Virus record (IMG/VR): IMGVR_UViG_3300044646_003076
Direction: 5' to 3' (one strand)
Length of the DNA: 64,000 bases
Source of the DNA: a virus
Position 1 is the first letter of the stretch. Each line of letters opens with the position of its first letter. The notes beneath the pieces were generated by a model. That model made no database searches and was not told where the DNA came from. It saw nothing but the letters and a program-made list of their open reading frames with translations. A program made the position numbers and the translations under genes. This document shows positions 1-41,600 of this stretch, piece after piece.

Positions 1-324
1 ATGAACAAATTTGAACAAGCTAGAGATCCCAATGCACATCCAAAAGTCCTAGAACAGCTAGCGACTGATGAGAATTATTTTGTTCGTTGTGTAGTAGCAA
101 GACATCCAAACACACCACCAAAAGCCCTAGAACTACTAGCGACCGATAAGAATTCTTCTATTCGTTGTGACACAGCAAGACAACCAAATACTCCACCAAA
201 AGCACTAGAACTACTAGCGACCGATAAGAATTCTTCTATTCGTTGTAACGTAGCACATAATCCAAACACTCCACACTACATCAAGATGTATCTTAAAATT
301 CAAAAACATCTAAAAACATTATGA
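1..324 (+). CDS. LRV (leucine-rich repeat variant, HEAT-like) repeat protein, 3 units + conserved C-tail
   Basis: 26-aa units NPNTPPKALELLATDxxxxVRxxVAx; tail NPNTPHYIKMYLKIQKHLKTL; N-cap MNKFEQARDPN like other copies. Confidence 0.85.
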   Translation: MNKFEQARDPNAHPKVLEQLATDENYFVRCVVARHPNTPPKALELLATDKNSSIRCDTARQPNTPPKALELLATDKNSSIRCNVAHNPNTPHYIKMYLKIQKHLKTL

Positions 325-806
325 AATACTTAATGCTCTCTGGTATCCCAACTAGCGGAAAATCCACCTATGTAAATAAGCTTCGGGAAATTCATTACTG
401 GCAATCTGCAGTAATCTTATCTACCGATAATTATATTGCTAGAATCGCAGAAGAGTCCGATACCACTTATGATGATGTATTTGAAGAATATATTAAAGAA
501 GCAACAAGACAGTTACACTTAGATTTACAAGAAGCAATTAAACTCAATAAACCGATCATTCACGATCAGACTAATCTAACAATCAAAACTAGAGCAAAAA
601 AACTTAGCAATATTCCTGTTCGCTATCAGAAAATTATTGTACACTTTGAAGTTCCGCTAGAAGAAGCACTGAGAAGAAATAAATGTCGTCCAGGAAAGTT
701 TATTTCTGAAGATATTATCAAAAGAATGTTTTATACTTTTGAACCACCGACTTCAGACGAAGGATTTAATCTAGTCTTGAGGTCAGATCAAGAACTGTCC
801 ATCTGA
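321..806 (+). CDS. P-loop nucleotide/polynucleotide kinase (AAA_33-like)
   Basis: Walker A GIPTSGKST, DQTN motif, lid ALRRNKCR. Confidence 0.8.
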   Translation: MKYLMLSGIPTSGKSTYVNKLREIHYWQSAVILSTDNYIARIAEESDTTYDDVFEEYIKEATRQLHLDLQEAIKLNKPIIHDQTNLTIKTRAKKLSNIPVRYQKIIVHFEVPLEEALRRNKCRPGKFISEDIIKRMFYTFEPPTSDEGFNLVLRSDQELSI

Positions 807-846
807 CAAGCATTTCCATACTATAATAGAGTAGACTTAAAATCCT

Positions 847-995
847 ATGTCCAAAACAAATCAGGTGAGTTTTTTATTAAACTATATGAAGACGAGAAGG
901 TGAAAATTATTACTAAGGGAGAAAAAGGAACAGATCCAGATCATCTTGCTTTTGCCACTGTTATACTTAAAGATACCAAAGATTCTGAAAAATGA
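847..995 (+). pseudogene. small gene split by a 1-nt indel in T6 run (870-875)
   Basis: MSKTNQVSF then -1 frame FIKLYEDEKVKIITKGEK...DSEK*, whose stop overlaps the next ATG. Confidence 0.45.
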
Positions 996-1783
996 GAATT
1001 AAACTATTATCGGATCTACATCTAGATCATGCGAAAGATCTTTCAATAATTGATTATTACACCGAAATGATTCTAACGTCCGGGAATCTTCTCATATTGG
1101 CCGGTGATATTTTATCAGTCAAACATCTTTCTTCTAATGGATTATTGAAGGATGTTTATTCTTCTTTCTTCCGAGAATGCTCTAAACGGTACGATAAGAT
1201 TATCTATGTAATGGGTAATCATGAGCATTTTGGATATAATTGTAGTCGTACAAAAAATAAGATCCAGGAATTTCTACCGAATAACTTTTATCTGCTAGAG
1301 AATCAAACTCTTCAAATTGATAATTGGAATTTTATTGGTTTTACACTATGGACCGATTTCAATAGAGCAAATCCGTTAGATATGATAAATGCATCGTCTT
1401 ATATGAATGATTATAAGGCAATTAGAATTACTGATCGTTATCGTAAATTCAGACCCGAAGACTCTCTCGCATTTCATCGAGGAAGTTTGCACTTTCTAAA
1501 AGAGCAACTCAATCTGATGAGCGATAATGTTTTTGTGATCAGTCATCATACTCCGAGTTATCGTTCGGTTCCACCCAAATTTATCGGCAATATCCATAAT
1601 TCGGCTTATTGTACTTCACTAGATGAGCTTATTATGGATTCTCCACAGATTAAGTATTGGGTGCATGGTCATACACATTGGCATCAAGATTATCATATTG
1701 AACAATGTAGAGTATTATGTAATCCTCATGGTTATTATGGAGAAACTACTGGATTCAATCCTAATTTTGAATTGGAAATCTAA
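992..1783 (+). CDS. calcineurin-like metallophosphoesterase
   Basis: SDLH, AGD, GNHE, SHH, HGHTH motifs. Confidence 0.9.
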   Translation: MRIKLLSDLHLDHAKDLSIIDYYTEMILTSGNLLILAGDILSVKHLSSNGLLKDVYSSFFRECSKRYDKIIYVMGNHEHFGYNCSRTKNKIQEFLPNNFYLLENQTLQIDNWNFIGFTLWTDFNRANPLDMINASSYMNDYKAIRITDRYRKFRPEDSLAFHRGSLHFLKEQLNLMSDNVFVISHHTPSYRSVPPKFIGNIHNSAYCTSLDELIMDSPQIKYWVHGHTHWHQDYHIEQCRVLCNPHGYYGETTGFNPNFELEI

Positions 1784-2058
1784 TGAGTCAACATTCTTTT
1801 GAATCAGAACCTATTACTGCTCAAGAGGCTAGATGTTTGAGTCAAAACTATAATAAATCCGATAGTTTTGAAAGACATATGCAAGAAATTTACGATAGAA
1901 TTAGATTTAATTCTAGTATGGGTAGACGTATTATATTCCATGAACTTTTTCTATCCCATCAAAATGTTGAACGAATTGTTCAAGAACTGTTGGCTAAAGG
2001 ATATAATGTAGAAAAAGAACTATTTCATTCTCATGGTGAATTGTTTATTAGTTGGTAA
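1783..2058 (+). CDS. hypothetical protein (TAxEAR...EIY...ELxxxGYxV...ISW family)
   Basis: operon tiling; paralogous to 16128 and 16394 genes. Confidence 0.75.
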   Translation: MSQHSFESEPITAQEARCLSQNYNKSDSFERHMQEIYDRIRFNSSMGRRIIFHELFLSHQNVERIVQELLAKGYNVEKELFHSHGELFISW

Positions 2059-2143
2059 ATTGTGCCACTCACACAACTGTCCACTAAAACCTGCTTTTTC
2101 TTTCGCTATCTGCTAAACTGAATTCACAAACAACGGAGTAATT

Positions 2144-2497
2144 ATGGGCTCTCTCACGACCTTTACTGTTTATAATGATTTTGCACATCATATCAAAAAG
2201 GATCCCAAGCAATTTGGTGAAAAAGTTTATGAACATATCCGTGAAATGGAGACTGGCGATGTTAGTCTGGAAATCGGCAATTGTTGCGCGACGGTTGCTA
2301 TTGGTCAACAATCTCGTCATGCTGATGATCTCTCAATCTATGTTCACATGGGAAATTGTGTGACCGAAGTGAATCCATATTCGCGCTCTTTTCAGGAATT
2401 AGTCAATAAAAATCCTCAGTTTGCAGATAAATTGATTGATTTTATTGAGGCAGAATTGGAGGAATTGAAAAAATTCAAACAAACAAAAAATAATTGA
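2144..2497 (+). CDS. hypothetical protein
   Basis: RBS ggag, follows class A promoter. Confidence 0.75.
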   Translation: MGSLTTFTVYNDFAHHIKKDPKQFGEKVYEHIREMETGDVSLEIGNCCATVAIGQQSRHADDLSIYVHMGNCVTEVNPYSRSFQELVNKNPQFADKLIDFIEAELEELKKFKQTKNN

Positions 2498-2506
2498 GGT
2501 ATTATC

Positions 2507-3929: not shown

Positions 3930-4456
3930 ATAAAGAACTTATTGATCATCTAAAATCAAGACATCTAAATTTAAAACTTCATCGTCCAATTCTTGATGAA
4001 AAACTATCAATAGCAACCTTTCTTTTCTATAATCTATCAGAACAACTTGTTGGTTATCAACAATACAATCCTAATGGTGATAAAAAGATCTTCAACTCAA
4101 AATTAGGTGGTCGTTATTATACTTATCATAAACAACCAACAATTGCTATTTGGGGCTTAGAATCATATTACATATCAGATGGACCAATTTTTATCACAGA
4201 GGGTATTTTTGACGCAGCGAGATTTACTGAAAGAAATCAAACTGCATTTGCGGTTTGTAGTAATGATCCACCGAAAGATTATAAAAATTGGTTTGACTCA
4301 TTACCAAGAAAAGTTATTGCGATTTGTGATAATGATTCTGCCGGTGAAGAACTGGCTAAGTTTGGAGATTATTATGAAATTGTTCCCGACAACAAAGATG
4401 TAGGAGAATCTTCTGAAGAATATGTTCGTTATCTTATTGAGAAATACACAAAATGA
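3926..4456 (+). CDS. Toprim-domain (primase-like) protein
   Basis: FITEGIFDA and ICDND Toprim motifs; no zinc-binding domain. Confidence 0.7.
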   Translation: MNKELIDHLKSRHLNLKLHRPILDEKLSIATFLFYNLSEQLVGYQQYNPNGDKKIFNSKLGGRYYTYHKQPTIAIWGLESYYISDGPIFITEGIFDAARFTERNQTAFAVCSNDPPKDYKNWFDSLPRKVIAICDNDSAGEELAKFGDYYEIVPDNKDVGESSEEYVRYLIEKYTK

Positions 4457-6228
4457 CTATTATTAAAAACTATCGCACTCATAATTGCGGTCAATTGACA
4501 TCTAAAAATGTTAATGAGATTGTGACGCTTTCTGGATGGATTGATCGTAGACGCGATCATGGTAAATTGATTTTTATTGATCTTCGTGATAGTAGCGGAG
4601 TGATTCAATTAGTTTTATCTAATGAAAATTCCGAACGTCTGAGAGTGGAGACTGTTATTCAGATTATCGGAACCGTTATTTCTAGACCGATTGAGAATAT
4701 CAATAATGAAATTTCAACGGGAGAGATAGAAGTAGAGGTAAGCGATTTAGTTATTCTAAACGAGGTTAAACACGTTCTACCATTTTCTGTTTCAAGAAAT
4801 GAAAGAACTGTTGTGAATGAAGAGTTACGTTTACAGAATCGTTATCTTGATCTTAGAAGTAAACGCATGAGTGATAATATACGAATGCGCCATAAAGTAA
4901 CAAGATCCATTCGTAATTTCTTAGAATCGGAAAATTTTATTGAAGTTGAAACACCTATTCTTAATCGTTCAACTCCAGAAGGTGCAAGAGAATACTTGGT
5001 ACCAAGTAGAATCTATAAAGGAGAATGGTTCTCTCTTTCTCAATCACCACAACTGTTTAAACAGATGCTGATGGTGGGTGGAATTGAAAGATATTATCAA
5101 ATTGCACGATGCTTCAGAGATGAATCTTTAAGAGTTGATCGGCAACCAGAATTTACACAAATTGATTTAGAGATGAGTTTCATGTCTCAAGATGAAATTC
5201 TTTCTCTTAGTGAGAGAATGATTTATAATATCTGGAAAGAAGCAAAAGGCGAAGAATTATCCATTCCTTTTTCTAGAATGAGTTGGAAAGAATCAATGGA
5301 GAGATATGGAACCGATCGGCCAGATATTCGTTATGGGTTAGAATTATTGGATGTATCAAAAATCTTTTCTGATTGTGGTTTTAAGGTATTTTCCAATGCG
5401 ATTAAGAGTGGTGGAGTTGTTAAATGTATTACCATCAATTCTAATAACGAAACAATTACAAAATCCCGTCTTAAAATTGGAGGAGATCTAAATGATTTGG
5501 CGATAAATTTGGGTTCCGGTGGACTCGCATACATCAAAATAAATGACGACCATGAATTTGATTGTATCAACGCCATTAAAGACAATTTAACAGAATTCCA
5601 AAAAACTGAACTGTTAGAAATAACAGAAGCTACATCTGGAAGTCTGATTATATTTTGTGCTGGTACATCTGATGTTGTCAACAAAACACTAGGCAAAATT
5701 CGTCAAGTTCTTGCAGAGGAATTGAATCTCATTACGAATGTAGATTCTTTTTTGTGGATTGTTGATTTTCCTATGTTTGAACATAATCCAATTGAGAATA
5801 AATTGTGCTCGCTTCATCATCCTTTTTGTGCTCCAATTGAAGACGATTTAGGAACAGAACCCGATTTATGGTCTGAGCGAATTGTTCGCTGCCGAGCACA
5901 ATCTTATGACTTGGTTCTCAATGGATACGAATTGGGTGGTGGCTCATTACGAATTCATGATTCCGAATTACAGAGAAAAGTTTTACAGATTCTCGGTCTT
6001 TCTGAAGAAAAGATTGATGATCAATTTGGATTTCTTTTAAATGCATTGGATTCTGGTGCTCCCCCTCATGGCGGATTGGCTTTTGGTTTAGATAGAATTG
6101 TTATGCTTCTTTTGAATGAAGAATCTATTCGTGATGTTATTGCCTTTCCGAAAAGCTCACAAACTAGATGTCTCCTAACGGGTGCTCCTTCAACTGTTTC
6201 AGATAACCAACTTCTTGAATTTGAATAG
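4453..6228 (+). CDS. aspS: aspartyl-tRNA synthetase (cyanobacterial type, probably non-discriminating)
   Basis: RTHNCG, RRDHGKLIFIDLRD OB fold, SPQLFKQ, motif 2 ARCFRDE..RQPEFTQID, GAD insert, HHPF, GGSLRIH, motif 3 GAPPHGGLAFGLDR. Confidence 0.97.
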   Translation: MTIIKNYRTHNCGQLTSKNVNEIVTLSGWIDRRRDHGKLIFIDLRDSSGVIQLVLSNENSERLRVETVIQIIGTVISRPIENINNEISTGEIEVEVSDLVILNEVKHVLPFSVSRNERTVVNEELRLQNRYLDLRSKRMSDNIRMRHKVTRSIRNFLESENFIEVETPILNRSTPEGAREYLVPSRIYKGEWFSLSQSPQLFKQMLMVGGIERYYQIARCFRDESLRVDRQPEFTQIDLEMSFMSQDEILSLSERMIYNIWKEAKGEELSIPFSRMSWKESMERYGTDRPDIRYGLELLDVSKIFSDCGFKVFSNAIKSGGVVKCITINSNNETITKSRLKIGGDLNDLAINLGSGGLAYIKINDDHEFDCINAIKDNLTEFQKTELLEITEATSGSLIIFCAGTSDVVNKTLGKIRQVLAEELNLITNVDSFLWIVDFPMFEHNPIENKLCSLHHPFCAPIEDDLGTEPDLWSERIVRCRAQSYDLVLNGYELGGGSLRIHDSELQRKVLQILGLSEEKIDDQFGFLLNALDSGAPPHGGLAFGLDRIVMLLLNEESIRDVIAFPKSSQTRCLLTGAPSTVSDNQLLEFE

Positions 6229-6561: not shown

Positions 6562-7836
6562 ATGACCAAAGAAGCAACTTTTGAAACTGCCGATCTCTTT
6601 ATTAAGCCTGATGAAGTTTCTTACTTCTCAACTCCGCGCTCCATCTCACATTATAACAACAAACGTGCAGAATATGATGCACTAGAAGCCGAAGAGCGAA
6701 ACTCCAATGGTGAAGTAGACAACAAGATCAAAAAAGCATGTGTTGTTGGTCCACTCATTATTGCTGCAGCCAAAACACTTTCTCTTCATAAAATTTGGCC
6801 AGATATTCCGACTGATTATTTCCGAAATTATCGGCATCTTCTTGAGCTACCAATTCAACTTGAACATCTCAATGATGAGAATGTCTCAAAATGGCTTCGG
6901 GATAATATGTCATATCGGACATTCTTCAATATGATTTATCGTCATGCTCTCCATTACGGAAAAGTTCTTTATCAAGAAGTACAACCACCGAAAAATCTGG
7001 ATAATGTAAACTTTGAAGAACTTCTTAAATCGGAAGAAGGTCCACTGGAAAATATTCTGGATCGGTTGGCAATTCGGGAAGAGCAGATCTATGAGAACTA
7101 TCTCAATGGTATTACCAAAGATCATCTAGAATCAAACCGCGCCATCAACATTCTTTATCATATTGCAGGTCATCCGAACACCTCTTCAGAAACATTGGCC
7201 CGATTGGGTGCCAGGGGAGATCATGTTTCATGTGTGGAGCGACAAATTGCTCTAAATCCGAATACGCCAGAAGAACTTCGTAAACTTCTTATCGTGGAAC
7301 ATGGTATTGAAGATGTAAATTCCCAACTCAAAGACACACTTGATCAGCTCCAAAAAATGCTGCTTAATGGTGCCACTATCGCACCCGAAACACGTAAAGA
7401 TGATGGTACGATTAAAAAATGGCGCTGGCGTCTTATTGATTTTCACGATAACATCAGCTATCTGTATCTGATGCAAGAGATCAAAAATGTAGAGTTCACC
7501 AATAATACAATCAAAAATCCATATCAAGAAGGTTCTTGGACTGTTTATCAACCCAAAGACAGCGTGGCACTGGCAATGTGGGCACAAAAAGTCAAGAATT
7601 GTGTTCGTGTACGTGAAGGCAATGTTCATAGTGGAAATTCCGAAATTGTGTTCATTGAACGTGATGGTCTCCCAGCATATACTGTTGAGGTTAAGCCAGG
7701 ATCACCCAAACGGCGAAATCTATCTGAACTTTCTATTGAAGAGATTCAGGCTTTTGGTGCTCGCAGTGGTGCGACACGCGATGATCAAGGAGTAATTCTG
7801 GATATGATTAAACGTGCGATGGGTGCGAATGTATGA
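6562..7836 (+). CDS. PcfJ-like domain protein with internal degenerate LRV units
   Basis: C-term WTVYQPKDSVALAMWAQKVKNCV resembles PcfJ; HPNTSSETLARL...ALNPNTP LRV-like. Confidence 0.55.
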   Translation: MTKEATFETADLFIKPDEVSYFSTPRSISHYNNKRAEYDALEAEERNSNGEVDNKIKKACVVGPLIIAAAKTLSLHKIWPDIPTDYFRNYRHLLELPIQLEHLNDENVSKWLRDNMSYRTFFNMIYRHALHYGKVLYQEVQPPKNLDNVNFEELLKSEEGPLENILDRLAIREEQIYENYLNGITKDHLESNRAINILYHIAGHPNTSSETLARLGARGDHVSCVERQIALNPNTPEELRKLLIVEHGIEDVNSQLKDTLDQLQKMLLNGATIAPETRKDDGTIKKWRWRLIDFHDNISYLYLMQEIKNVEFTNNTIKNPYQEGSWTVYQPKDSVALAMWAQKVKNCVRVREGNVHSGNSEIVFIERDGLPAYTVEVKPGSPKRRNLSELSIEEIQAFGARSGATRDDQGVILDMIKRAMGANV

Positions 7837-8039: not shown

Positions 8040-8052
8040 GAGGAATTTTTAA

Positions 8053-8456: not shown

Positions 8457-9014
8457 ATGAATAAAGTTGAATTAGCTAAAGATCCAAACACTCCACTAGA
8501 AACTTTAGAACTTCTAGCGACAGATAAGTATTCTAGTGTTCGCTCCAGAGTAGCACAAAATCCCAATACACCACCAAAAGTCTTAGAACAACTAGCGACT
8601 GATGAGGATGATTTGATTCGTTATTGGGTAGCAGAAAATCCAAACACACCACCAAAAGTTCTAGAACAACTATCAACCGAAAAGGATTCTAGTGTTCGCT
8701 CCAGAGTAGCACAAAATCCCAATACACCACCAAAAGTCTTAGAACAACTAGCGACTGATGAGGATTGGTATGTTCGTTGGGATGTAGCAAAGCATCCCAA
8801 CGCACACCCAAAAGCCCTAGAACAATTAGCGACCGATAAGGATTCTTCGGTTCGTCGTGGTGTAGCATATAATCCAAACACTCCACCAAAAGCCTTAGAA
8901 CAACTAGCGACCGATGAGGATCTTTATGTTTGTCGTAGTGTGGCACGAAATCCAAACACACCACGCTACATCAAAAAGTATATTAAAATTCAAGAACATC
9001 TAAAAACATTATGA
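8457..9014 (+). CDS. LRV repeat protein, 6 units + C-tail
   Basis: 78-nt units; tail PRYIKKYIKIQEHLKTL. Confidence 0.9.
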   Translation: MNKVELAKDPNTPLETLELLATDKYSSVRSRVAQNPNTPPKVLEQLATDEDDLIRYWVAENPNTPPKVLEQLSTEKDSSVRSRVAQNPNTPPKVLEQLATDEDWYVRWDVAKHPNAHPKALEQLATDKDSSVRRGVAYNPNTPPKALEQLATDEDLYVCRSVARNPNTPRYIKKYIKIQEHLKTL

Positions 9015-10181: not shown

Positions 10182-10691
10182 ATGAACATTTTTGCAACTT
10201 CATCTTGTCCCGAACAATCAGCAATCGTTCTTCCCGATAAGCACATCAATAAGATGCCAACTGAATGTTGTCAGATGTTGGCATATGTTGCATCATCTTC
10301 TTACAATAACTACGGAACAATTCCAAAAATCAACGGTGAACCATATAAGACCACAAATATCGCTCATCTTAAGCATCCATGTACTAAATGGGCAGCAGAA
10401 TCAATCCATAATGCTTCCTGGTTGATTTATCATGCGTTTATGTTGTGTGAAGAATTTGAGCGCCGATTTGGCCATAAACATGGAACTTATGATACTCTCA
10501 TGGCAGCTTATGAGATGTTTCCAGAAGGCCAATTTTCGTTGATGACTCCATTTGTTCGCTCAATGGATGAAGTTTTTAAGTTTGATAATACCATTGATAC
10601 GTTTATTGCATATAAGCGTTATCTTGCGAGTAAGCCATGGATTCAAGATAATTATGTTCGTATGCCCGAAAGGAAACCAGAATGGATTTAA
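10182..10691 (+). CDS. denV: pyrimidine-dimer DNA glycosylase/endonuclease V-like protein
   Basis: MNIF...DKHINKMPTECCQML, HPCTKW, EFERRFGHKH, TPFVRSM pattern of cyanophage Pyr_excise family. Confidence 0.75.
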   Translation: MNIFATSSCPEQSAIVLPDKHINKMPTECCQMLAYVASSSYNNYGTIPKINGEPYKTTNIAHLKHPCTKWAAESIHNASWLIYHAFMLCEEFERRFGHKHGTYDTLMAAYEMFPEGQFSLMTPFVRSMDEVFKFDNTIDTFIAYKRYLASKPWIQDNYVRMPERKPEWI

Positions 10692-11014
10692 ATTCTAAAA
10701 TAGTACAAGCTAATAGCCCAAACACCCCAACAAAAGTCCTAGAACAACTAGCGACCGATGCGGATTATCTTGTTCGTTTGGGGGTGGCACATAATCCAAA
10801 CACACCACCAAAAATATTAGAACAACTAGCGACTGATAAGAATCTTGGTGTTCGTTATTGGGTAACAAGAAATCCAAACACACCACCAAAAACCTTAGAA
10901 GTTCTAGCGACCGATAAGAGTTCTGAGGTTCGTGAATGTGTAGCAAGAAATCCAAACACACCACACTACATCAAAAAGTATCTTAAAATTCAAGAACATC
11001 TAAAAACATTATGA
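10682..11014 (+). CDS. LRV repeat protein, 3 units + C-tail
   Basis: repeat units and tail PHYIKKYLKIQEHLKTL. Confidence 0.9.
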   Translation: MDLNSKIVQANSPNTPTKVLEQLATDADYLVRLGVAHNPNTPPKILEQLATDKNLGVRYWVTRNPNTPPKTLEVLATDKSSEVRECVARNPNTPHYIKKYLKIQEHLKTL

Positions 11015-11504
11015 GCAAACTTGAACAAGCTAAACATCCAAACACATCACCAGAAGTCTTAGAAAAACTAGCGACCGATGAGCACTGTTGGGTTCGTCAA
11101 GCTGTAGCAAAAAATCCAAACACTTCGTCAAAAATTCTAGAAATTCTATCTGTTGATGGGGATCCTTGGGTTCGTTATAATGTAGCACTACATCCAAACA
11201 CACCACCAGAAATTCTAGAGCAATTAGCATCTGATAATAAATCTTATATTCGTCGGATAGTAGCAGAAAATCCAAATACACTAACAAAACACTATAACAA
11301 CTAGCTACCGATGAGTATCATTTGGTTCGTGAAGAAGTAGCAAGATATCAAAACAGTCCACCAAAAGCACTAGAACTACTAGCGACCGATGAGGATAACA
11401 ATGTTCTTATTAGGGTATTATTCAATCCAAACACACCTCACTATCTCAAAAAGTATCTTAAAATTCAAGAACATCTGAGGACACTTCTCAAACTGTCACA
11501 ATAA
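11011..11504 (+). pseudogene. LRV repeat protein (5 units + tail) broken by a 1-nt deletion and a GAA>TAA nonsense at 11287-11297
   Basis: aaaacactataacaacta versus canonical aaaacactagaacaacta; downstream frame continues to the tail. Confidence 0.75.
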
Positions 11505-11557: not shown

Positions 11558-12253
11558 ATGAATTCTTCTGAAATCACAACCGCTGTTAGTGAAGCACTCC
11601 AACGACATATTCCTCTTATTGTTGAAGAGGTAACAACAAAGCTAACCAAGAAAGAAAAATGGGAAGATTATAGTGTTGAGAAACTATCTGCGATGGCTGT
11701 AAGTGAAGATTACAAACAAAGATGTTCCGCAGCAGCACATCCAAGAACACCCATGGAAATCATTTATAAGCTGCTTGAGGATCCGAATCATAATGTTCGG
11801 TTAGCAGTGGGCAGAAATCCTAATATTCCACTCATCACTCTTAGCTCACTTTCATTATATCCATCGTTGCTCAAAAAACTTAAAACTGAGGGGAATTTAA
11901 ATCAAATTATGGAGTTTTTTGATGAAGCTATTAAGTCTAAAGCCAATAAAAGCACCCGACGAAGCTTTAGAATGTTGATTGAAGAAAGAATTATGAATGG
12001 TGATTTTGATGACGAGCTTAATAACGGTATTAGTGGTTGGTATGGAGTTTTTAATTTGAATACACCAGCCAAATCACTTATTAATTGGACTGAAAAAACT
12101 TCAGATTTTTATTATGATTTTAGATTTTTATGTAAACTCATGATTAAATATCGGATCAAAAGATTCCTCCAAACTGCAACGCAAGATGAAAAAGAGTTAT
12201 TGCTTCATGTAGATTCTTTGTTGTTTCGGCGTTATTTTGATTCCACTTCTTAA
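11558..12253 (+). CDS. protein with degenerate LRV units
   Basis: AAAHPRTPMEIIYKLLEDPNHNVRLAVGRNPN. Confidence 0.75.
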   Translation: MNSSEITTAVSEALQRHIPLIVEEVTTKLTKKEKWEDYSVEKLSAMAVSEDYKQRCSAAAHPRTPMEIIYKLLEDPNHNVRLAVGRNPNIPLITLSSLSLYPSLLKKLKTEGNLNQIMEFFDEAIKSKANKSTRRSFRMLIEERIMNGDFDDELNNGISGWYGVFNLNTPAKSLINWTEKTSDFYYDFRFLCKLMIKYRIKRFLQTATQDEKELLLHVDSLLFRRYFDSTS

Positions 12254-17683: not shown

Positions 17684-18724
17684 ATGGCTAAGAGTAATCA
17701 GCTTATTCCAAAAATTCCCGAAGAAGCGTCTTCTGCGATTGATCTAGCCAAGAAAACAACAGATAGAGCTGTTCTTATTGCTCTTTCAAAACATACTAAT
17801 GATGATGTAAGATTCTTTGTTGCTGAAAATCGTTACACTCCTGTCGAAGTTCTCCGGGAACTTTCAAAGGATCCATATTTTACTGTTCGGCTTAAAGTTG
17901 CGGGAAATCCTTCAACTCCTTCAGATGTTTTAGAGAATATTATGGAAAATGATATTTCTCTTAAGGCAGAAGTGGAAAATAATCTTTCTTATAAAAGTAA
18001 AGATAAAGAAGAAGTTCAGGCTTTTCTTAAGAACATTAGTATAACTGATGCCAAAAATTTAGCGGAAAATATTAATACTCCTCCTGAGACACTTATTAAA
18101 CTTGCCAGACATAAAGATTCACTTGTTACTTATCATATATCTTGTAATCCCATGACTCCAACAGAAGCTCTTAGAATTCTTGCCACTCTTGATGATCATG
18201 TTGTAAGAAAATATGTGTTTGATCATAATAATTCGTCAGCAGAAACCTTAGCTATTATTGATGATAGAGACGGTTTTACCACAGGACATTTTAGGATTCT
18301 TTACGACAAACAGGCCAGAATTATTGAAAAATACAAAAGAGAAGAAACACAAAGAGTTGCACAACAAGAACAAGAACAGAAACGTCTAAAAGAAAAAGAA
18401 GAAAAACTTCAGAGAGAATTAGAACTGAGACAAGAATCTCAAAGAATCCTCGCAATTATTAGTAATCCTGAAACACCTATTGAAGAATTATTAAAATACA
18501 GCTATCGTGAAGAACTCATTAACAACCCAACCTATAGGAGATACCTAAATCTCAATAAGACAGACCCAACTGATTTAGAAATTCTAGATTTTCTAGATTG
18601 GGTCTATAATGCAGACACAGAAAAACTAGAAGCCTTTGCTAAACTAGATTTATCTAAGAAATTATCATTGTGGGAAAAACTAATTCTGTTCTTTAAAAAT
18701 CTCTTTAACGGAAAAACATTATGA
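17684..18724 (+). CDS. degenerate LRV/HEAT repeat + coiled-coil protein
   Basis: VRFFVAENRYTPVEVLRELSKD, VAGNPSTP units; Q/E/K-rich helix. Confidence 0.8.
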   Translation: MAKSNQLIPKIPEEASSAIDLAKKTTDRAVLIALSKHTNDDVRFFVAENRYTPVEVLRELSKDPYFTVRLKVAGNPSTPSDVLENIMENDISLKAEVENNLSYKSKDKEEVQAFLKNISITDAKNLAENINTPPETLIKLARHKDSLVTYHISCNPMTPTEALRILATLDDHVVRKYVFDHNNSSAETLAIIDDRDGFTTGHFRILYDKQARIIEKYKREETQRVAQQEQEQKRLKEKEEKLQRELELRQESQRILAIISNPETPIEELLKYSYREELINNPTYRRYLNLNKTDPTDLEILDFLDWVYNADTEKLEAFAKLDLSKKLSLWEKLILFFKNLFNGKTL

Positions 18725-19084: not shown

Positions 19085-19723
19085 ATGTCAATCACAACTG
19101 AACAACTAATAGAGATTTTCAAAAAAGTTCTTTCGGAAATAGAAAATCTAAATGTTGTAAACCTTTCTTATGATGAAAAGAGAACGCTTGCTTGCGATCC
19201 CGAAACCTCACCAAAAGCTCTAAAGTTTCTAGCGACCGATGAGGATTATTGGGTTCGTTGGAGTGTAGCAAATAGTCCAAACACTCCACCAAAAGTCCTA
19301 GAACAACTAGCGACCGATGAGGATTCTGTTGTTCGTTCCAAAGTAGCACTAAACCCAAACACTCCACCAGAAGCTCTAGAACTTTTAGTAGCAGATGATA
19401 ATGTTGATGTTCGTTGGAGTGTAGCGGAAAATCCAAACACACCACCAAAAGCCCTAGAACAATTAGCGACCGATGAGGATTATTCGGTTCGTTGTGGTGT
19501 AGCACGGAATCCAAACACTTCACCAAAAGCTCTAGAACAACTAGCGACCGATGAGGATTCTTGGGTTCGTTGTTGTGTAGCAAAAAATCCAAACTACCAA
19601 AAATCTACAGTAAAAGTTCCAGATCTATCTGTGACCGAATATGAGGCCCTAAAAGAACTACTCAAAAATACACAAAATCAAAGTCTAAAATCTCTTTCCA
19701 CTAAACTAGGAGTCATTCAATGA
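19085..19723 (+). CDS. LRV repeat protein, 5 units, alternative N- and C-caps
   Basis: canonical units; tail NPNYQKST...EYEALKELLKN. Confidence 0.9.
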   Translation: MSITTEQLIEIFKKVLSEIENLNVVNLSYDEKRTLACDPETSPKALKFLATDEDYWVRWSVANSPNTPPKVLEQLATDEDSVVRSKVALNPNTPPEALELLVADDNVDVRWSVAENPNTPPKALEQLATDEDYSVRCGVARNPNTSPKALEQLATDEDSWVRCCVAKNPNYQKSTVKVPDLSVTEYEALKELLKNTQNQSLKSLSTKLGVIQ

Positions 19724-21286: not shown

Positions 21287-21867
21287 TGGTCTGCCTAAAA
21301 ACAACAGAATCAAGAGAATCTGCTGCAAAAAATCCAAACACACCACCAAAAGCCCTAGAACAACTAGCGACCGATGAGGATTATTGGGTTCGTTATTGGG
21401 TAGCACATAATCCAAACACACCACCAAAAGCCCTAGAACAACTAGCGACCGATGAGGATGATTTGATTCGTTATTGGGTAGCACTAAATCCAAACACTCC
21501 ACCAAAAGCCCTAGAACAACTAGCGACCGATGAGGATCTTTATGTTCGTTATTGGGTAGCAGAAAATCCAAACACACCACCAAAAGCCCTAGAACAACTA
21601 GCGACCGATGAGGATTCTAGTGTTCGTTGTTGGGTAGCAGAAAATCCAAACACTCCACCAAAAGCCCTAGAGCTTCTAGCGACCGATAAGAATTCTTCGG
21701 TTCGTCGTGGTGTAGCATATAATCTAAACACTTCTCCAAAAGTCCTAGAACAACTTGCGGCCGATCACGTTTGGGTTATTCGTTGGCGTGTGGCAAAAAA
21801 TCCAAACACACCCCGCTACATCAAAAAGTATCTTAAAATTCAAGAACATCTTATGACACTTCCATAA
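21283..21867 (+). CDS. LRV repeat protein, 6 units + C-tail
   Basis: near-perfect 78-nt units; tail PRYIKKYLKIQEHLMTLP. Confidence 0.9.
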   Translation: MMVCLKTTESRESAAKNPNTPPKALEQLATDEDYWVRYWVAHNPNTPPKALEQLATDEDDLIRYWVALNPNTPPKALEQLATDEDLYVRYWVAENPNTPPKALEQLATDEDSSVRCWVAENPNTPPKALELLATDKNSSVRRGVAYNLNTSPKVLEQLAADHVWVIRWRVAKNPNTPRYIKKYLKIQEHLMTLP

Positions 21868-24409: not shown

Positions 24410-24751
24410 ATGCTTTTTTCTAACGATGTTTTCAGAGGAGTGGGAGAATATAGTGGAACATTTCTTCATCATTTCTTCTTAGACTGTGCTGCCAAACACG
24501 ACAAAACAAATCCAGGTTTTATTGAACGAATCGCAGAAAAAGAACAAACTGATATTACATTAACTATTGATGGAGAAGAAGTTGATATAACCGAAACTCT
24601 TCAATTTTACTGGTCACAAATGGATGACATGATTAAAGAGCGAGCATGTAAACTAATGCGAGACAAATTTGTTGATATTAGTGATAATTTACAGATTATT
24701 GAAGACACTGTTCTTTGTAAGATGAAGAATGAACTCGGGATTGATTATTAA
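24410..24751 (+). CDS. hypothetical protein
   Basis: RBS gagg. Confidence 0.7.
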   Translation: MLFSNDVFRGVGEYSGTFLHHFFLDCAAKHDKTNPGFIERIAEKEQTDITLTIDGEEVDITETLQFYWSQMDDMIKERACKLMRDKFVDISDNLQIIEDTVLCKMKNELGIDY

Positions 24752-25353
24752 TGATTATGATGAAGAATGAAGATATTACGAAGCTAACACGTAAAGAAAA
24801 ATGTAATCAAGCTAGAGATCCAAACACCCCATCGGAAGTTTTAGAACATTTAGCAACCGATGTGGATTATTCTGTTCGTTATTGGGTGGCACATAATCCA
24901 AATACGTCACCAAAAGCTCTAGAACAACTAGCGACCGATGTGTATTCTAATGTTCGTTGTGGAGTAGCAGAAAACCCAAACACACCACCAAAAGCCCTAG
25001 AACTTCTAGCGACCGATAAGGATCATTTTGTTCGTTGTGATGTAGCAAGAAATCCAAACACTCCACCAACAACATTGGAACTTCTAGCTACTGATAGGTG
25101 TGGTTATGTTCGTTGGGATGTAGCACAAAATCCAAACACTCAACCAAAAAGTCTAGAGCAATTAGCGACCGATAGGTATTATGATGTTCGTCGTGGTGTA
25201 GCAGAAAACCCAAACACACCACCAAAAGCCCTAGAACAACTAGCGACCGATGAGTATTATGGGGTTCGTTATTTTGTAGCACAAAATCCAAACACACCAC
25301 ACTACATCAAAAAGTATCTTAAAATTCAAGAACATCTGAGGACACTTCAATAA
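24751..25353 (+). CDS. LRV repeat protein, 6 units + C-tail
   Basis: canonical units; tail PHYIKKYLKIQEHLRTLQ. Confidence 0.9.
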   Translation: MIMMKNEDITKLTRKEKCNQARDPNTPSEVLEHLATDVDYSVRYWVAHNPNTSPKALEQLATDVYSNVRCGVAENPNTPPKALELLATDKDHFVRCDVARNPNTPPTTLELLATDRCGYVRWDVAQNPNTQPKSLEQLATDRYYDVRRGVAENPNTPPKALEQLATDEYYGVRYFVAQNPNTPHYIKKYLKIQEHLRTLQ

Positions 25354-26120: not shown

Positions 26121-27506
26121 ATGAAACTTCAAGAAATTATTGCCCGTCTGAACACCAAAGAAGAACCCTATTCCGGTGAAGATCTTCAAAAGGAGCTTGG
26201 TCACCAAAATCCAGTGGATCTTTCAATCTTTGGTTTCACTATTCGCACGATCAAGAAATATAGCACTTCCGTAAGAGCTGCCTATAAACTCATTTACCAT
26301 AGTGGTGTTCCAATTTGTATTGCTCATTATTATCAATCATTTCAATATTTTTTGGTTGATTATACGTGGATCAGTGAAGAGATCTATTGGAATATCCTGA
26401 AAATTATTAAAAATATTCACTCTCAAGATATTCGTCTTATTGATCAAAATGAAGAATGGGATCCCGTTGATATTGAACTGGAACCAATTAGTGAAATTAT
26501 TCTGTCCGAAAGACAGAAACTTGAACTGGCAAAAAATCCAAATACTTCTTCTGGATTGTTGGAGTTTCTTGCATCCGATGAGAATGAAGAGGTTCGTTCG
26601 GGAGTAGCACAAAATCCCAATACTCCACCAAAAGTCCTAGAACAACTAGCGACCGATGAGTATTCTTATGTTCGTTGTTGTGTAGCACATAATCCAAATA
26701 CTTCAACAAAAACACTAGAACAACTAGCGACCGATAAGGATTATTGGGTTCGTTGGAGAGTAGCAAAACATCCAAACACATCACCGAAAGTTCTGGAACG
26801 ACTAGCAACAGAAGAGACTGATATTAATGATTATGTTCGTCATGCTGTAGCAGAAAACCCAAATACCCCATCAGAGTTCCTAGTACGTCTAGTAACCAAA
26901 GCTACAGGAGCGTCCGATGTTGATGTTTATATTCGTCGGGGAGTAGCAGGAAATCCAAACACACCATCACCAACATTAGAAGTTCTAGTGACCGATGAAA
27001 ATGATAATGTTCGGAAACTAGCGACCGAAAATCTTAAATCAAGGAATGAAGAGGTTCGTCGGTATGTGGCAGGAAATCCAAACACACCACGTACAACATT
27101 AGAAGTTCTAGCGACCGATGATGATGATTATGTTCGTTGGTTTGTAGCACAAAATCCAAACACACCACCAGAACTTCTAGAAGTGTTGGCGAATGATGAG
27201 GCTCTTAATGTTCGTTGGTTTGTAGCAAAAAATCCAAACACACAGTCAAAAGCCTTAGAACTTCTAGCAATCAATAAGGATTTTGGTGAGCATCATTGGG
27301 GAATTCACTGTGGAGTAGCAGAGCACCCAAACACTCCATTAAAAACTTTAGAACTTTTTGTGACCCATAATAATGGTGCAGTTCGTTATTGTGTGGCAGG
27401 AAATCCAAAAACACCAACCGAAGTCTTAGAAGTGTTGGTTAATGATGAGTTTCTTAATGTTCGGGAACGAGCGACCGAAAATCTTAAATCAAGGACGGTT
27501 GCTTAA
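26121..27506 (+). CDS. fusion of N-terminal domain (paralog of 31960 gene) and about 11 LRV units
   Basis: N-term aligns with 31960-32535; LRV array from about 26515. Confidence 0.85.
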   Translation: MKLQEIIARLNTKEEPYSGEDLQKELGHQNPVDLSIFGFTIRTIKKYSTSVRAAYKLIYHSGVPICIAHYYQSFQYFLVDYTWISEEIYWNILKIIKNIHSQDIRLIDQNEEWDPVDIELEPISEIILSERQKLELAKNPNTSSGLLEFLASDENEEVRSGVAQNPNTPPKVLEQLATDEYSYVRCCVAHNPNTSTKTLEQLATDKDYWVRWRVAKHPNTSPKVLERLATEETDINDYVRHAVAENPNTPSEFLVRLVTKATGASDVDVYIRRGVAGNPNTPSPTLEVLVTDENDNVRKLATENLKSRNEEVRRYVAGNPNTPRTTLEVLATDDDDYVRWFVAQNPNTPPELLEVLANDEALNVRWFVAKNPNTQSKALELLAINKDFGEHHWGIHCGVAEHPNTPLKTLELFVTHNNGAVRYCVAGNPKTPTEVLEVLVNDEFLNVRERATENLKSRTVA

Positions 27507-29074: not shown

Positions 29075-29452
29075 ATGAACGACCAACTTCAAGCACAACT
29101 TTCTCGGGTTCTTACACAGATTATGGTATCTGTGGGAGAAGTCAAAGATTTCTCTGTTGCACAACTTCCAGATATTGTTCAACAGTATATCCAATATGGA
29201 ATCTACTCATCTATTTTCTATTCTGTAATTGCTTTTCTGGTTTTTATTGTATGTGTGATTGGTTCTCATAAAGTTTTGAAATATATTAAACAAAAAGGGC
29301 GAGATAATGGTATTTCTCTTTTTATTGCATTTTTTATTGCTATCGGACTTATCAGTATAGTTGCATTCATTGTGAACATTCACAGTTTGATTATGGTTCT
29401 CACTGCACCTAAGGTGTGGTTCATTCTTGAAATCAAAAACCTTCTTTCCTAA
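29075..29452 (+). CDS. membrane protein
   Basis: two TM segments; ends APKVWFILEIKNLL. Confidence 0.75.
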   Translation: MNDQLQAQLSRVLTQIMVSVGEVKDFSVAQLPDIVQQYIQYGIYSSIFYSVIAFLVFIVCVIGSHKVLKYIKQKGRDNGISLFIAFFIAIGLISIVAFIVNIHSLIMVLTAPKVWFILEIKNLLS

Positions 29453-29790
29453 AAGTTTTAGCGATAGATCCGAAATGGTATATTCGGTATCGTGTAGCAA
29501 AGAATCCTAAAACATCGAAAGAAACTCTAGGGATTCTGGCTGCAGATGAAGATTTTAGTATTCGTTTTACTGTGACACAACATCCACATTTAAGTCAAAA
29601 AACCCTAAAAATCCTAGCGTCAGAGGAAGAATATCGTGTTCGTGATGAGGTGGCCTTGCACCCAAACACTTCAACCGAAACACTAGAGATTCTAGCGACA
29701 GATTGTGATTACCGGGTTCGGAGAAATGCAAAGATGCACCCTAATTATAAGATTTCTCGTTGGAATTTTTTGAAGTTTCTGTTCGGGTGA
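29452..29790 (+). pseudogene. 5'-truncated LRV repeat gene (about 4 units, no start codon)
   Basis: frame open from 29431 (KVLAIDPKWYIRYRVAKNPKT...) without ATG; abuts upstream stop. Confidence 0.6.
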
Positions 29791-31959: not shown

Positions 31960-32535
31960 ATGCACCTTTCTGAACTTATCACAAGACTGGACTCTTTTGA
32001 GCATCCATATAACGGATATGATCTACAAGAAAATTTAGGTTATCGTCCCGATTCATTTTTGGATCTTTCCGAGCATGGTTATACTCGTAAGTCAATTTAT
32101 GAATATCTCTATCCTAAACATTATTTTCTCGTGGGCAAATATCTTGTTTTTCACGATAAAACACCAATCGCAATTTTAACATCACCATTTTTGGAAGAAA
32201 AAAGTGGCGTTAAATGGATCAATGGAAGTGTTTATGAATACACAAAGGCGCATATCAATAAACTACACTGTGCCGAACCGGAAAATCCAGAATGGATAGA
32301 TCCCGATGAAGAATGGCCTGAAACTTATGAAGTTCCTAGTATTAAAAATCTAATTGCGGGTGTTCAGACAAAAGCAATTTATCAGGGAAAAGAGTACACA
32401 ATTGATTGGCAAAATAGGAATTTCATATCTCATCGTTCTCAGGAGTTTCCAGATCAAGTAGTTCCATTGAAAGCGATTCCAGTCAATAATTGGATTCCGA
32501 TTTCACAACTTTCATTTCCTATTCAACTCAAATGA
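31960..32535 (+). CDS. hypothetical protein (paralog of the 26121 N-domain)
   Basis: L.E.I.RL...E.PY.G.DLQ..LG, IDxxEEW shared. Confidence 0.75.
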   Translation: MHLSELITRLDSFEHPYNGYDLQENLGYRPDSFLDLSEHGYTRKSIYEYLYPKHYFLVGKYLVFHDKTPIAILTSPFLEEKSGVKWINGSVYEYTKAHINKLHCAEPENPEWIDPDEEWPETYEVPSIKNLIAGVQTKAIYQGKEYTIDWQNRNFISHRSQEFPDQVVPLKAIPVNNWIPISQLSFPIQLK

Positions 32536-33182: not shown

Positions 33183-34361
33183 ATGTCTACAACACGGACT
33201 ACGATCTCTTCTGAATTAAAAATGTCTATTTTTCGCGGTATTGTTGACATTTTTCCTGAAATTCCAACGGACTTTCTGGCTACACCAAAAAAGGATCAAA
33301 TTGGGGTTTGATCCTACATCGGATAGCTTACATTTGGGACATTCTATTCTTTTAAGAAAGCTCTCCGAATTTCAAAATGCTGGCCATAAACCAGTTATTA
33401 TTATTGGTGACTTTACAGCAAGAATTGGTGATCCAACTGGAAAATCAAAGACGCGCAAACAACTGACAAAAGAAGAAGTTGATGATAATGTTGATACATT
33501 TTTCACCACAATTTCTAAGTTTATTGATGTAAATAATGCTGAATTCGTCTTTAATTCCACTCATCTTAATTCACTCACTTTATCTGAAATTATTAGGCTC
33601 CAGTCAACATTTACAGTAAATCAGTTACTAGCAAAACAAGACTTTAGGGACCGATTCAATAAAGAAAACCCTATCGGTCTACATGAAATGATGTACCCGT
33701 TATTGCAAGGTTTTGATAGCTTTGCTGTAAAATCTGACATTGAATTGGGTGGAGTTGATCAAAAATTTAACGTATCTATCGGTAGAGTTATTCAAAAACA
33801 ATTTGATTCCGATAACCAACAAGTGGGAATGTTAATGCCGATTCTCATTGGAACTGATGGAAAAGAAAAAATGTCCAAGAGTCTCAATAATACCATAGGA
33901 ATAGATGAACACCCGCTTAATATGTTCTCAAAACTGGAAAAATTCCAGACAACATTGTAGACGATTTTATTTTACTTTTGACAGACTTAGGCATGACAAA
34001 TCTGCCTGCCAATCCTAGAGAAAAACAAAAGTTGATGGCAGTTGAAGTAGTTTCAACAATTCATGGTGAAGAAGAAGCCAAAAATGCTCTTAAAAATTCA
34101 GAGGCGATTATCGTATCCGGTGAAACAGAAGTTATTGCCGAAGAAGTCGCTTTTGAAGAAATTAAGCTGCCGATTCTACTCGCTAATTTACTTAAAGATA
34201 TAAATTTTACAAAATCAACAAGTGACGCGAGACGTTTGATAACTTCTGGTGCTATTAAAATAGATGGAATAAAAATTACAGACGAAAAACATACTGTTAA
34301 TGAATTTGGTCAACTCTTACAAGTTTCCCGTAAAAGATTTTTCCGTCTTATTGCAAAATAG
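33183..34361 (+). pseudogene. tyrS: tyrosyl-tRNA synthetase in three frames (+1 at A6 33287-33292, -1 at A5 33938-33942); pseudogene, recoding or sequencing error
   Basis: RGIVDIFP, KLGFDPT..HLGH, IIGDFTARIGDPTGKS, YPLLQGFDS, ELGGVDQKFN, KMSKS, C-terminal S4 domain KSTSDARRLITSGAIKIDG. Confidence 0.9.
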
Positions 34362-40403: not shown

Positions 40404-40586
40404 ATGCTAACGATTTTTATCATTTACTTATACATGGTCACTTGCACATATTGGGCTCTTGTTGCATTACGAACTCCGAGTAATTTTTCCGAACGAGGTC
40501 TTATGATATGGGCTGCATTATGGTGGCCGGTATTGATTCCAAGTGTGTTAATTGCTAAGATCCTAAAGGAATTGGATTCTTTATGA
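40404..40586 (+). CDS. small membrane protein
   Basis: hydrophobic, AALWWP motif. Confidence 0.65.
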   Translation: MLTIFIIYLYMVTCTYWALVALRTPSNFSERGLMIWAALWWPVLIPSVLIAKILKELDSL

Positions 40587-40664
40587 CACTCCATAAGCTG
40601 TCCACTCATCACCAATAATCCCAGCACTATCCGCTAACATGATTACTGTTATTGGATTTCTTCC

Positions 40665-40826
40665 ATGAAAATCAACTGGCTTAATCTTCTTCTTCTGGTA
40701 TCGGGAAGTTCCATTTCCCTGTCTATTCTTACTTTGTTGTTTGGTCCTTTTCCCTTTCTTGTTCCTCTTCTTCATGGAGCAGTTTGGGGATTGTTATCGG
40801 TTTGTTTTTTCCCCCTTACTAAGTGA
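40665..40826 (+). CDS. 53-aa 2-TM peptide (MKINWLNL family copy 1)
   Basis: read from sequence, below track cutoff. Confidence 0.7.
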   Translation: MKINWLNLLLLVSGSSISLSILTLLFGPFPFLVPLLHGAVWGLLSVCFFPLTK

Positions 40827-40830
40827 TCCA

Positions 40831-40986
40831 ATGAAAATCAACTGGCTTAATCTTCTTATTTGTTTGATAGGAATTATTAGTAATATTATTCTTTTCACTT
40901 TGCTTTTCGGACCACTTCACCCTCTTTCTGCAATGATAGTTGGTATTGTATGGGGACTGTTTTTCCCAGGTATTGATAATGATTGA
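40831..40986 (+). CDS. 51-aa 2-TM peptide (MKINWLNL family copy 2)
   Basis: same 5' end. Confidence 0.7.
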   Translation: MKINWLNLLICLIGIISNIILFTLLFGPLHPLSAMIVGIVWGLFFPGIDND

Positions 40987-40990
40987 TCCA

Positions 40991-41158
40991 ATGAAAATCA
41001 ACTGGCTTAATCTCTTTTATTGGCTCCTTGTCAATCAGGTTTCATTAACAGTGTTTACTGTGTTCTTTGGTCATGTAGACATTTTGACAGCAATAATAAC
41101 TGGTACTTTCTGGGGTGTCGTATCAAATTACACTCTTACGATTTTTTATTACGAATGA
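40991..41158 (+). CDS. 55-aa 2-TM peptide (MKINWLNL family copy 3)
   Basis: same 5' end. Confidence 0.7.
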   Translation: MKINWLNLFYWLLVNQVSLTVFTVFFGHVDILTAIITGTFWGVVSNYTLTIFYYE

Positions 41159-41397
41159 TGTCACACCACAAGTACATTGTTGAAGTTAGGAACATTGATG
41201 GTTCCTTGGCAAGTTTATCAGAAGTGGAAAAGAAAAGACAAGAACATCCACATCTGTTTTCAAAAGAAGAATTTACAATATATGAACTTTGTTATTATGC
41301 GTCATTTGGACAGGGGCGAGATGTTCCAACTGGTCCTGTAGGTTTGCCCAAATTTATGCAAGATATTGGTATTTCTTATCGGCTTAAAACATGGTAA
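41155..41397 (+). CDS. hypothetical protein
   Basis: ATG overlaps upstream stop. Confidence 0.65.
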   Translation: MMSHHKYIVEVRNIDGSLASLSEVEKKRQEHPHLFSKEEFTIYELCYYASFGQGRDVPTGPVGLPKFMQDIGISYRLKTW

Positions 41398-41600
41398 CAA
41401 TAGAACCATTCTTATCAAGTTATGAAATCCATCTTAAACGTTGTTATACCGCAATAAGTTTACACACTCCAATAAAAGATCTAATGATATTAGCAAATGA
41501 CGAGGATCATTTTATTTGGGATTTGGTAGCAGAAAATCCAAACTGCCCACGTTATCTTAAAAGATACATTGCAATTAAAAAGTATCTAATGAAACTGTGA
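41391..41600 (+). CDS. minimal LRV protein (1 unit + divergent C-tail)
   Basis: ILANDEDHFIWDLVAENPNCPRYLKRYIAIKKYL. Confidence 0.7.
   Translation: MVTIEPFLSSYEIHLKRCYTAISLHTPIKDLMILANDEDHFIWDLVAENPNCPRYLKRYIAIKKYLMKL

Follow-up and report, generated by a model that had tools for sequence, protein, structure and literature searches.

A dispersed family of LRV repeat proteins with hypervariable positions in an uncultured phage

Introduction

Why would a phage carry a dozen or so separate genes for the same small repeat protein, with a nearly constant framework and a handful of positions that differ in almost every copy? The question is raised by a 64,000-nucleotide stretch of viral DNA (IMG/VR record IMGVR_UViG_3300044646_003076; hereafter the window), which encodes many proteins built from 26-residue units of the leucine-rich repeat variant type (LRV, PF01816). 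A preliminary description, made from the sequence alone, interpreted these genes as an antibody-like library of binders. Here we confirm that the window holds a dispersed LRV repeat family, and find that the earlier interpretation as a whole is partly supported. We hold with moderate confidence that the genes represent a lineage-specific, fast-turnover family of small capped alpha-solenoid LRV proteins in which a stripe of variable residues would act as a protein-binding surface.

Results and Discussion

Repeat units and their variable positions

The window contains 12–14 LRV genes or gene pieces, all on the plus strand, and every gene coordinate listed in the preliminary description does carry LRV units on that strand. 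A strict pattern finds 42 units of 26 residues and a hidden Markov model (HMM) of the unit finds 49 at E<1e-3, again all on the plus strand, in agreement with the earlier count of more than 45. The predicted architecture is a short N-cap, 1 to ~13 units with a HEAT-type D-x4-V-R signature, and a C-terminal capping helix. Assignment to LRV and HEAT-like repeats is well founded: six genes score 55–194 bits against Pfam LRV (gathering cut-off 21.6 bits), and both Foldseek and phmmer lead to the LRV protein 1LRV. Pfam HEAT_2 (PF13646) is matched with whole-protein scores of 30.8–41.9 bits in four genes (cut-off 27.7); no single stretch passes alone, and the LRV scores far exceed the HEAT_2 scores in the same window genes. 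HEAT_PBS, the CpcE/F and NblB type, was not matched when eight LRV proteins were searched against Pfam at E<0.01, and neither NCBIfam nor PADLOC gave a meaningful match.

Entropy was computed per position over the 42 strict-pattern units. It reaches 2.9–3.5 bits at positions 18, 19, 22, 23 and 26 and 2.2 bits at 16 and 17, and is at or below 0.72 bits in the core framework (2–4, 9, 10, 12, 13, 15, 20, 21, 24 and 25), with positions 1, 5–8, 11 and 14 semi-variable (1.2–2.2 bits). This is the near-invariant scaffold with variable positions 16–19, 22, 23 and 26 that had been described. Compared with the window's other proteins, positions 18, 19, 22 and 23 are enriched in W (13-fold, p 8e-19), C (8-fold), Y (3-fold) and S (2-fold). 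Of the six residues previously named as enriched, these four stand; R is marginal (1.7-fold) and D is not enriched. The same positions had been said to vary freely. Their entropy is indeed high, but the alphabet is restricted and skewed to W, Y, C and S, largely by way of T-ending codons one mutational step apart. The exposed residues K7, E10, Q11, T14 and D15, in helix A and the loop, are conserved, and variability is thus one-sided rather than spread over the whole exposed surface.

Predicted fold

An AlphaFold2 model of the 185-aa protein encoded at 8457–9014 (predicted local distance difference test score, pLDDT, 94.8) has 14 helices, with two per unit in all six units. Helix A corresponds to unit positions 6–12 and helix B to positions 18–26. 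V20, R21, V24 and A25 lie on one side of helix B and would pack inward. Positions 18, 19, 22, 23 and 26 (i, i+1, i+4, i+5, i+8) would span ~140 degrees on its other side and, with loop positions 16–17, are predicted to form an exposed stripe, which would stack from unit to unit into a continuous surface.

Foldseek searches identified 1LRV (template modelling score, TM, 0.68), alphaRep binders in complexes (TM 0.73–0.75) and the HEAT repeats of PP2A-A; the unit profile also matches PP2A-A, through the HEAT D-x4-V-R signature. The only solved sequence homologue is 1LRV (phmmer with the protein of 21283–21867, E 1e-18). In alphaRep proteins, the randomised positions 18, 19, 22, 23, 26 and 30 make up the concave, target-contacting face (PMC3754942). 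The fixed-framework, variable-face design proposed for the phage proteins is borne out: by helix register, the variable residues share one side of helix B, and their positions in the repeat are those randomised in alphaRep.

Turnover between strains and selection on units

A syntenic sister strain is represented by the 125-kb IMG/VR contig 3300044591_002420 (G001), with flanks 90–97% identical to those of the window and gp6 99.8% identical. For ordinary genes, the ratio of non-synonymous to synonymous substitution rates (dN/dS) between the two is 0.01–0.3. G001 encodes 28 LRV genes with 92 units. Positional orthologues retain their N- and C-caps and differ in unit number: six units in the window and two in G001 for the gene at 8457–9014, five and two for 19085–19723, six and three for both 21283–21867 and 24751–25353, and ~13 and five (HMM-supported, in a 281-aa protein) for 26121–27506. 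When the first and last units of orthologues are compared, 68% of variable positions differ, versus 24% of other positions (Fisher p 8e-15).

Across the window and G001, 109 distinct five-residue signatures occur in 116 units. For most units the closest relative lies in a different gene or in the other genome; it is in the same gene for only 13 of the 116. The location of nearest relatives elsewhere, together with the presence of broken copies, fits unit-level recombination plus birth-and-death turnover. The family appears to be lineage-specific and to turn over rapidly.

Nei-Gojobori estimates over all unit pairs give a dN/dS of 1.8 for the seven variable codons, at the top of an overall range of about 1.6–1.8, and 0.18 for the framework. 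Non-synonymous change is thus concentrated at the variable positions, in line with a check suggested in the preliminary description. For nearest-neighbour unit pairs, dN in the variable codons is 0.715, compared with a framework dS of 0.138. Pairs with zero or one difference in the 57 framework bases differ at 4–12 of the 21 variable-codon bases, the exception being one identical tandem duplicate. Framework codons are uniform even where they are rare in the genome (GCG for Ala13, 69% versus 11% in the background; ACC, 83% versus 21%; CGT, 92% versus 21%; CTA, 69–78% versus 17%; GTA, 90% versus 26%), and therefore point to identity by descent or gene conversion.

These data bear on whether this is an ordinary repeat family with no adaptive diversification, in which the core is kept for folding, the helix-B surface drifts and the remainder is kept uniform by gene conversion. 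Their function would then be a single generic one, for example as scaffold or chaperone. A conserved core and a variable surface are found in every solenoid family, cellular LRV proteins vary at the same positions, concerted evolution alone accounts for the uniform framework codons, and the dN/dS estimates are rough. However, only the helix-B stripe varies while exposed K7, E10, Q11, T14 and D15 are conserved, and the enrichment of W and C is far from what drift would be expected to produce in an AT-rich genome. Nor does drift sit well with nearly as many signatures as units, or with the replacement of 68% of variable residues between strains in which other genes are 92–99% identical. A single generic role also does not account for ~30 intact paralogues. 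We consider this explanation unlikely.

How the variation arises

No RVT_1 match was found in the 125-kb G001 contig, no reverse transcriptase family among the Pfam-scanned open reading frames (ORFs) of the window, and no template-like copy of the unit in six-frame HMM scans. The exact 200-aa protein encoded at 24751–25353 occurs in five contigs from several samples. Because this protein recurs across samples and no reverse transcriptase was found, we conclude that the genes are germline-encoded, without somatic assembly or hypermutation. They appear to form a germline multigene family that evolves by recombination and selection.

The alternative is that variation is made in real time, by programmed hypermutation like that of diversity-generating retroelements (DGRs) or by cassette assembly. 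The restriction of variation to a few codons, many of them NNT, is in keeping with such a mechanism. However, the changes are not adenine-specific: third codon positions vary too (TGT/TGG), and in codon 17 it is chiefly the first base that varies. In addition, ~80% T-ending codons is the genome's normal bias. Given also the results of the reverse transcriptase and template scans and the recurrence of an exact protein, we give this mechanism almost no credence. A somatically assembled receptor like the lamprey variable lymphocyte receptors (VLRs) was considered as well and rejected; the genes are complete and capped, and the recurring protein again speaks against it. The likeness to VLRs and engineered binders drawn earlier holds for architecture and evolution; it does not extend to somatic assembly or hypermutation in these germline-encoded genes.

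Possible functions

In the favoured reading, near-identical framework stretches of ~50 nt would allow units to be duplicated, lost and swapped by phage recombination, both inside a gene and from one dispersed gene to another, with concerted, birth-and-death evolution of units across genes. Selection would favour new side chains on the stripe, which would be a protein-binding surface. The repertoire would be made in the infected cell, before the late genes, to bind variable partners, and the likeliest targets would be host defence proteins or other host proteins engaged in an arms race. By analogy, a one-sided, aromatic-rich and fast-changing face on a rigid scaffold has the pattern of a protein-binding surface. 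Arrays are fused to unrelated N- or C-terminal parts in the genes beginning at 19085, 26121 and 43093, and this fits a modular recognition domain.

Several points weigh against this reading. The dN/dS values are rough, being based on seven short, saturated codons, and dS is lowered by the strong bias to T-ending codons (~80% in the background and 92% here). Nearest neighbours were picked by framework similarity, which biases framework dS downward, and units and unit pairs are not independent samples. The placement of variable residues on one face derives from helix register and the alphaRep and 1LRV analogy, not from computed solvent exposure, and stacking between aromatic residues of neighbouring repeats could in part serve stability. 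The higher share of W, Y and C at positions 18, 19, 22 and 23 in the phage family (39%, versus 10% in six named cyanobacterial LRV proteins) favours the reading, but it comes from a small comparison set of 18 units. The protein of 17684–18724 is 91% identical to its G001 orthologue and not hypervariable, and the end units of 26121 are conserved between strains; because of such members, the whole family cannot be engaged in an arms race.

The C-cap raises the possibility of a second interface. Across 17 copies its tail has a dS of 0.63 and a dN/dS of 0.27, which shows purifying selection despite high synonymous divergence. Such conservation could come from the needs of folding or from docking to something shared by the members. 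If the latter, the proteins would be an adaptor repertoire, with the stripe selecting targets and the C-terminal helix, NPNTP-H-YIKKYLKIQEHLKTL, attaching every member to a single partner. A phage effector is one candidate and a host machine such as the Clp protease system another, and the targets would be modified, sequestered or degraded. Consistent with docking, the C-cap helix of the model has 15 residues, versus 7 for the helix A whose place it takes, and it is retained even in the one-unit gene at 41391–41600. A phage ClpS gene also adjoins LRV genes, in an order conserved in G001 and in the more distant L102, a 244-kb ENA scaffold. However, folding by itself demands that a capping helix be conserved, tails differ in other subfamilies (19085, 26121, and 'NPNTPIHILK' types elsewhere), and the ClpS neighbourhood is one locus of ~30. 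An adaptor role thus seems improbable.

Taken further, docking would make the family a targeting system, in which each member seizes a different host or rival-phage protein with its variable aromatic face and the C-terminal helix plugs all of them into one shared machine, redirecting proteolysis or another effector. The ClpS neighbour hints at host Clp protease as that machine. The list of targets would change as units are shuffled between ~30 genes, and the system would be a counterpart of the poxvirus ankyrin/F-box adaptors. We regard this more elaborate proposal as decidedly unlikely.

Could the arrays instead read DNA or RNA, as nucleic-acid binders or regulators? The HEAT-like repeats of AlkC and AlkD bind DNA, and some relatives of the phage proteins have a ribbon-helix-helix (RHH) tail. 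Metagenome annotations call some homologues AlkC or CopG/RHH, a relative of the 19085 subfamily (P0002) has a precomputed RHH_1 match, and there is a weak match to the AlkC profile (E 1.5). This match is not significant, however, and no Pfam RHH domain occurs in the window's own genes. The proteins lack consistent positive charge (isoelectric points of 4.7–9.4, most near neutral or acidic) and their W-, Y- and C-rich variable faces are typical of protein interfaces. We judge nucleic-acid binding very unlikely. The same range of isoelectric points, with no consistent acidity, argues against DNA mimicry, an idea that we reject.

If the proteins are binders, a phage clade has evolved the design used by engineers in alphaRep and DARPin proteins, a rigid capped solenoid with one aromatic-rich, diversifying face, and the uniform framework possibly eases recombination. 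They would then offer a tractable natural system in which virus recognition repertoires are renewed without immune-type machinery, and a route to the host proteins that a cyanophage must neutralise. Natural phage solenoids could perhaps also be mined as ready-made binders. Judging by the turnover between strains, LRV genes probably help to determine host range or escape from defences in populations of freshwater cyanophages.

Comparison with known systems

The Azotobacter vinelandii leucine-rich repeat variant protein, 1LRV, has a homologous repeat (28% identity, with the phmmer and Foldseek scores given above). Its units, like those of the phage, have two helices and an L-x2-L-x2-D-x4-V-R-x2-V-A signature; the NPNTP linker accounts for a length of 26 residues in the phage unit, versus 24 in 1LRV. 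Unlike 1LRV, the phage proteins are without an Fe-S domain, small and capped, with dozens of paralogues and a hypervariable aromatic stripe. To our knowledge, no function has been established for 1LRV.

Both alphaRep binders and the phage proteins consist of an N-cap, n two-helix units with identical framework, and a C-cap, and share variable positions 18, 19, 22, 23 and 26 on the second helix. However, alphaRep units are man-made, 31 residues long and selected by phage display, whereas those of the phage are natural, 26 residues long and germline-encoded, and make up putative binders; identity is ~20%. With lamprey VLRs and DGR targets, which combine a fixed scaffold with variation at ligand-facing positions, the likeness is in design logic only, given that the phage system has no somatic assembly, no reverse transcriptase or template repeat was found, and sequences are stable across samples.

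The ankyrin families of poxviruses and giant viruses are host-range factors, some with a C-terminal PRANC/F-box-like motif. Like them, the phage family is a lineage-specific expansion of repeat proteins in which copy number changes from strain to strain and many members keep a conserved motif at the C-terminus. Fold and host domain are different, and no F-box-like motif was detected in the phage LRV proteins.

The closest viral structures are 'Leucine rich repeat variant' proteins of Caudovirales (Foldseek E 2e-11, 30–35% identity). These entries, present in BFVD and UniProt for uncultured Caudovirales (e.g., A0A6J5NQI3 and A0A6J5PUA4), are automatic annotations only, and LRV proteins in phages are thus already in databases. 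In the literature searched, no paper was found that describes LRV proteins as a family in phages, or the expansion or hypervariability of such a family.

LRV genes of the window

The first LRV gene, at 1–324, encodes the N-cap MNKFEQAR, three units (four in the G001 positional orthologue) and the C-cap NPNTPHYIKMYLKIQKHLKTL. Its 3' end overlaps the start of an AAA_33/KTI12-like kinase gene (321–806). The gene used for the model, 8457–9014, has an N-cap, six units and a C-cap (Pfam LRV, 137 bits), and that at 10682–11014 has three units and a C-cap. The next gene (11011–11504) is frameshifted by a 1-nt deletion near 11285–11298. The piece at 11011–11304, whose units had been recognised, encodes three of them, and the gene continues out of frame at 11298–11504 with two more and a C-cap.

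Two genes had been described as degenerate, and both are diverged. The diverged gene at 11558–12253 is a borderline member at 21.5 bits, just under the 21.6-bit cut-off. The 346-aa diverged protein of 17684–18724 has degenerate units together with a coiled, charged middle (55.5 bits).

A second subfamily is represented by 19085–19723, with its own N-terminal helix, five units and its own C-terminal tail (116 bits). The gene at 21283–21867 encodes six near-consensus units and a C-cap (163 bits); its start is likely ATG 21286, a correction to the coordinate first listed. Six units and a C-cap are encoded at 24751–25353. The largest protein (26121–27506) combines a 145-aa N-terminal domain with ~13 units, some with insertions (194 bits). 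Its N-terminal domain (26121–26555) has a stand-alone paralogue at 31960–32535 (30% identity, E 9e-10). In the ESM Atlas this domain had no usable match by features, and TM was below 0.4 by structure.

The gene first placed at 29452 is a 5'-truncated piece (29431–29790) with three or four units and no G001 counterpart. The frame is open from 29431, with the first canonical start at 29572, and 29572–29790 scores 28 bits against Pfam LRV. A minimal member at 41391–41600 has one degenerate unit and a C-cap, and is detected by the unit HMM (4.7e-12) with no Pfam hit. The family does occupy the range 1–41600 given for it, but a possible further member, with an unrelated N-terminal part and a single LRV-like unit at its C-terminus, lies beyond it at 43093–43488. 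A possible distant member of 424 aa at 6562–7836 has a weak LRV-like stretch at residues ~185–257 and no Pfam hit; BLASTP against the LRV paralogues gives E 1e-5 to 3e-7. All of the LRV genes in this section are on the plus strand.

The LRV genes sit in the non-structural block of the window. Pfam searches of 20 neighbouring genes revealed no recurrent partner family; the only matches were the AAA_33 kinase, a pyrimidine-dimer glycosylase and a Kyano_Gp96-like protein. The LRV proteins are unlikely to be capsid-targeted internal proteins of the T4-like kind, which start with a targeting sequence that includes a prohead-protease site (MKTYQEFIAE-like); by eye, the N-caps MNKFEQAR, MNKVELAK and MSKLEQAK are without an L/I-x-E site.

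Expression signals

The T4-late-like motif CTAAATA is depleted in the window, with 5 sites observed versus 14.3 expected. These are at 43625, 52275–52281 (minus strand), 54846–54852 (minus strand), 54864 and 55131, that is, at 43.6 kb and beside the baseplate genes and a minus-strand operon; none occurs in 1–43.6 kb and none upstream of LRV genes. Early expression, which the preliminary description had inferred, is only hinted at, by this lack of late-type motifs and because the LRV genes are on the same strand as the rest of the non-structural block and as tightly packed. A scan of 8–28 kb for sigma-70 promoters and terminators gave no excess over shuffled sequences and is uninformative on timing.

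The element GCTGTCCA occurs 70 nt upstream of 19085 and is common to eight other plus-strand genes. The element has a GTGACA-like arm, then ATAA-GCTGTCCAC, and a GTTATTG-like box follows it; the copies, at 13348, 14638, 15639, 19016, 20309, 40597, 41611, 41988 and 43746, lie ~70–85 nt upstream of the nine genes. It is probably a phage-specific promoter or operator class.

Distribution among relatives

LRV units are absent from the complete genome of Synechococcus phage B23, from a complete 243-kb IMG/VR relative and from three other large relatives, and tblastn with 21283–21867 had no match in phage B3. A 46-kb contig from the same sample (G006) has 33 units, including those of a 747-aa open frame. 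The L102 scaffold encodes the same capped mini-genes with its own framework consensus, NPNTPPETLERLANDK. Within each genome the frameworks are thus alike, and from one genome to another they differ, as expected under concerted evolution.

The gene order ClpS, LRV, LRV, AAA_33/KTI12-like kinase is common to G001 (64112–66482) and L102 (5185–6927), and its last two genes match window positions 1–806. Because the left end of the window falls within this block, a phage ClpS gene is probably to be found immediately upstream of position 1.

Named cellular homologues are cyanobacterial, with 32–47% identity. A genome-contig search with 21283–21867, using patterns from variable stretches, gave one weak Obscuribacterales match, uninformative on origin or host.

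Source phage and genomic context

The window has a G+C content of 31–40%, and T4-type baseplate genes are encoded at its right end (gp6 wedge, 55555–57453, and a giant gp7-like virion protein from 57455). Its closest relatives in culture, Synechococcus phages B3 and B23 (gp6 64% identical), are subarctic-lake myoviruses of the Synechococcus-Cyanobium complex, with genomes of 244 kb and a G+C content of 34.8% (PMC7171214). By its genes, the phage appears to be an uncultured, large, T4-like virus of the cyanomyovirus type, related to freshwater cyanophages, and related contigs suggest a genome of ~240 kb. Proteins identical to those of the window are present in several JGI and Logan metagenome samples.

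Small plus-strand genes are densely packed in the first 43 kb, and the stop codon of one often overlaps the start codon of the next. Also encoded in this block are AspRS, a split TyrRS, an AAA ATPase and a DenV-like glycosylase. The AspRS gene is full (tRNA-synt_2 and GAD domains, 4453–6228). The TyrRS-like gene consists of a catalytic ORF (33241–33960) and, 17 nt downstream, an S4/SYY C-terminal ORF (33978–34361). In G001 (L087), a 487-aa ORF at 66489–67952, absent from the window, resembles class II LysRS by eye. No tRNA genes were found in the window.

The neighbouring genes 47453–47884 and 48163–48972 have in common a 121-residue segment (86% identity) that belongs to no Pfam family and reflects a recent duplication, with one copy in G001. 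The minus-strand operon lies at 51881–54822, upstream of the baseplate genes, with a weak GNAT acetyltransferase match at 52291–52929. Finally, an 11.7-kb contig from JGI sample 3300059473, which includes P0007, carries LRV genes with the same C-cap as the window family, and genes with IS605 OrfB/TnpB (Cas12f-like) and Val_tRNA-synt_C domains; it is possibly another part of this phage's genome or of a sister genome.

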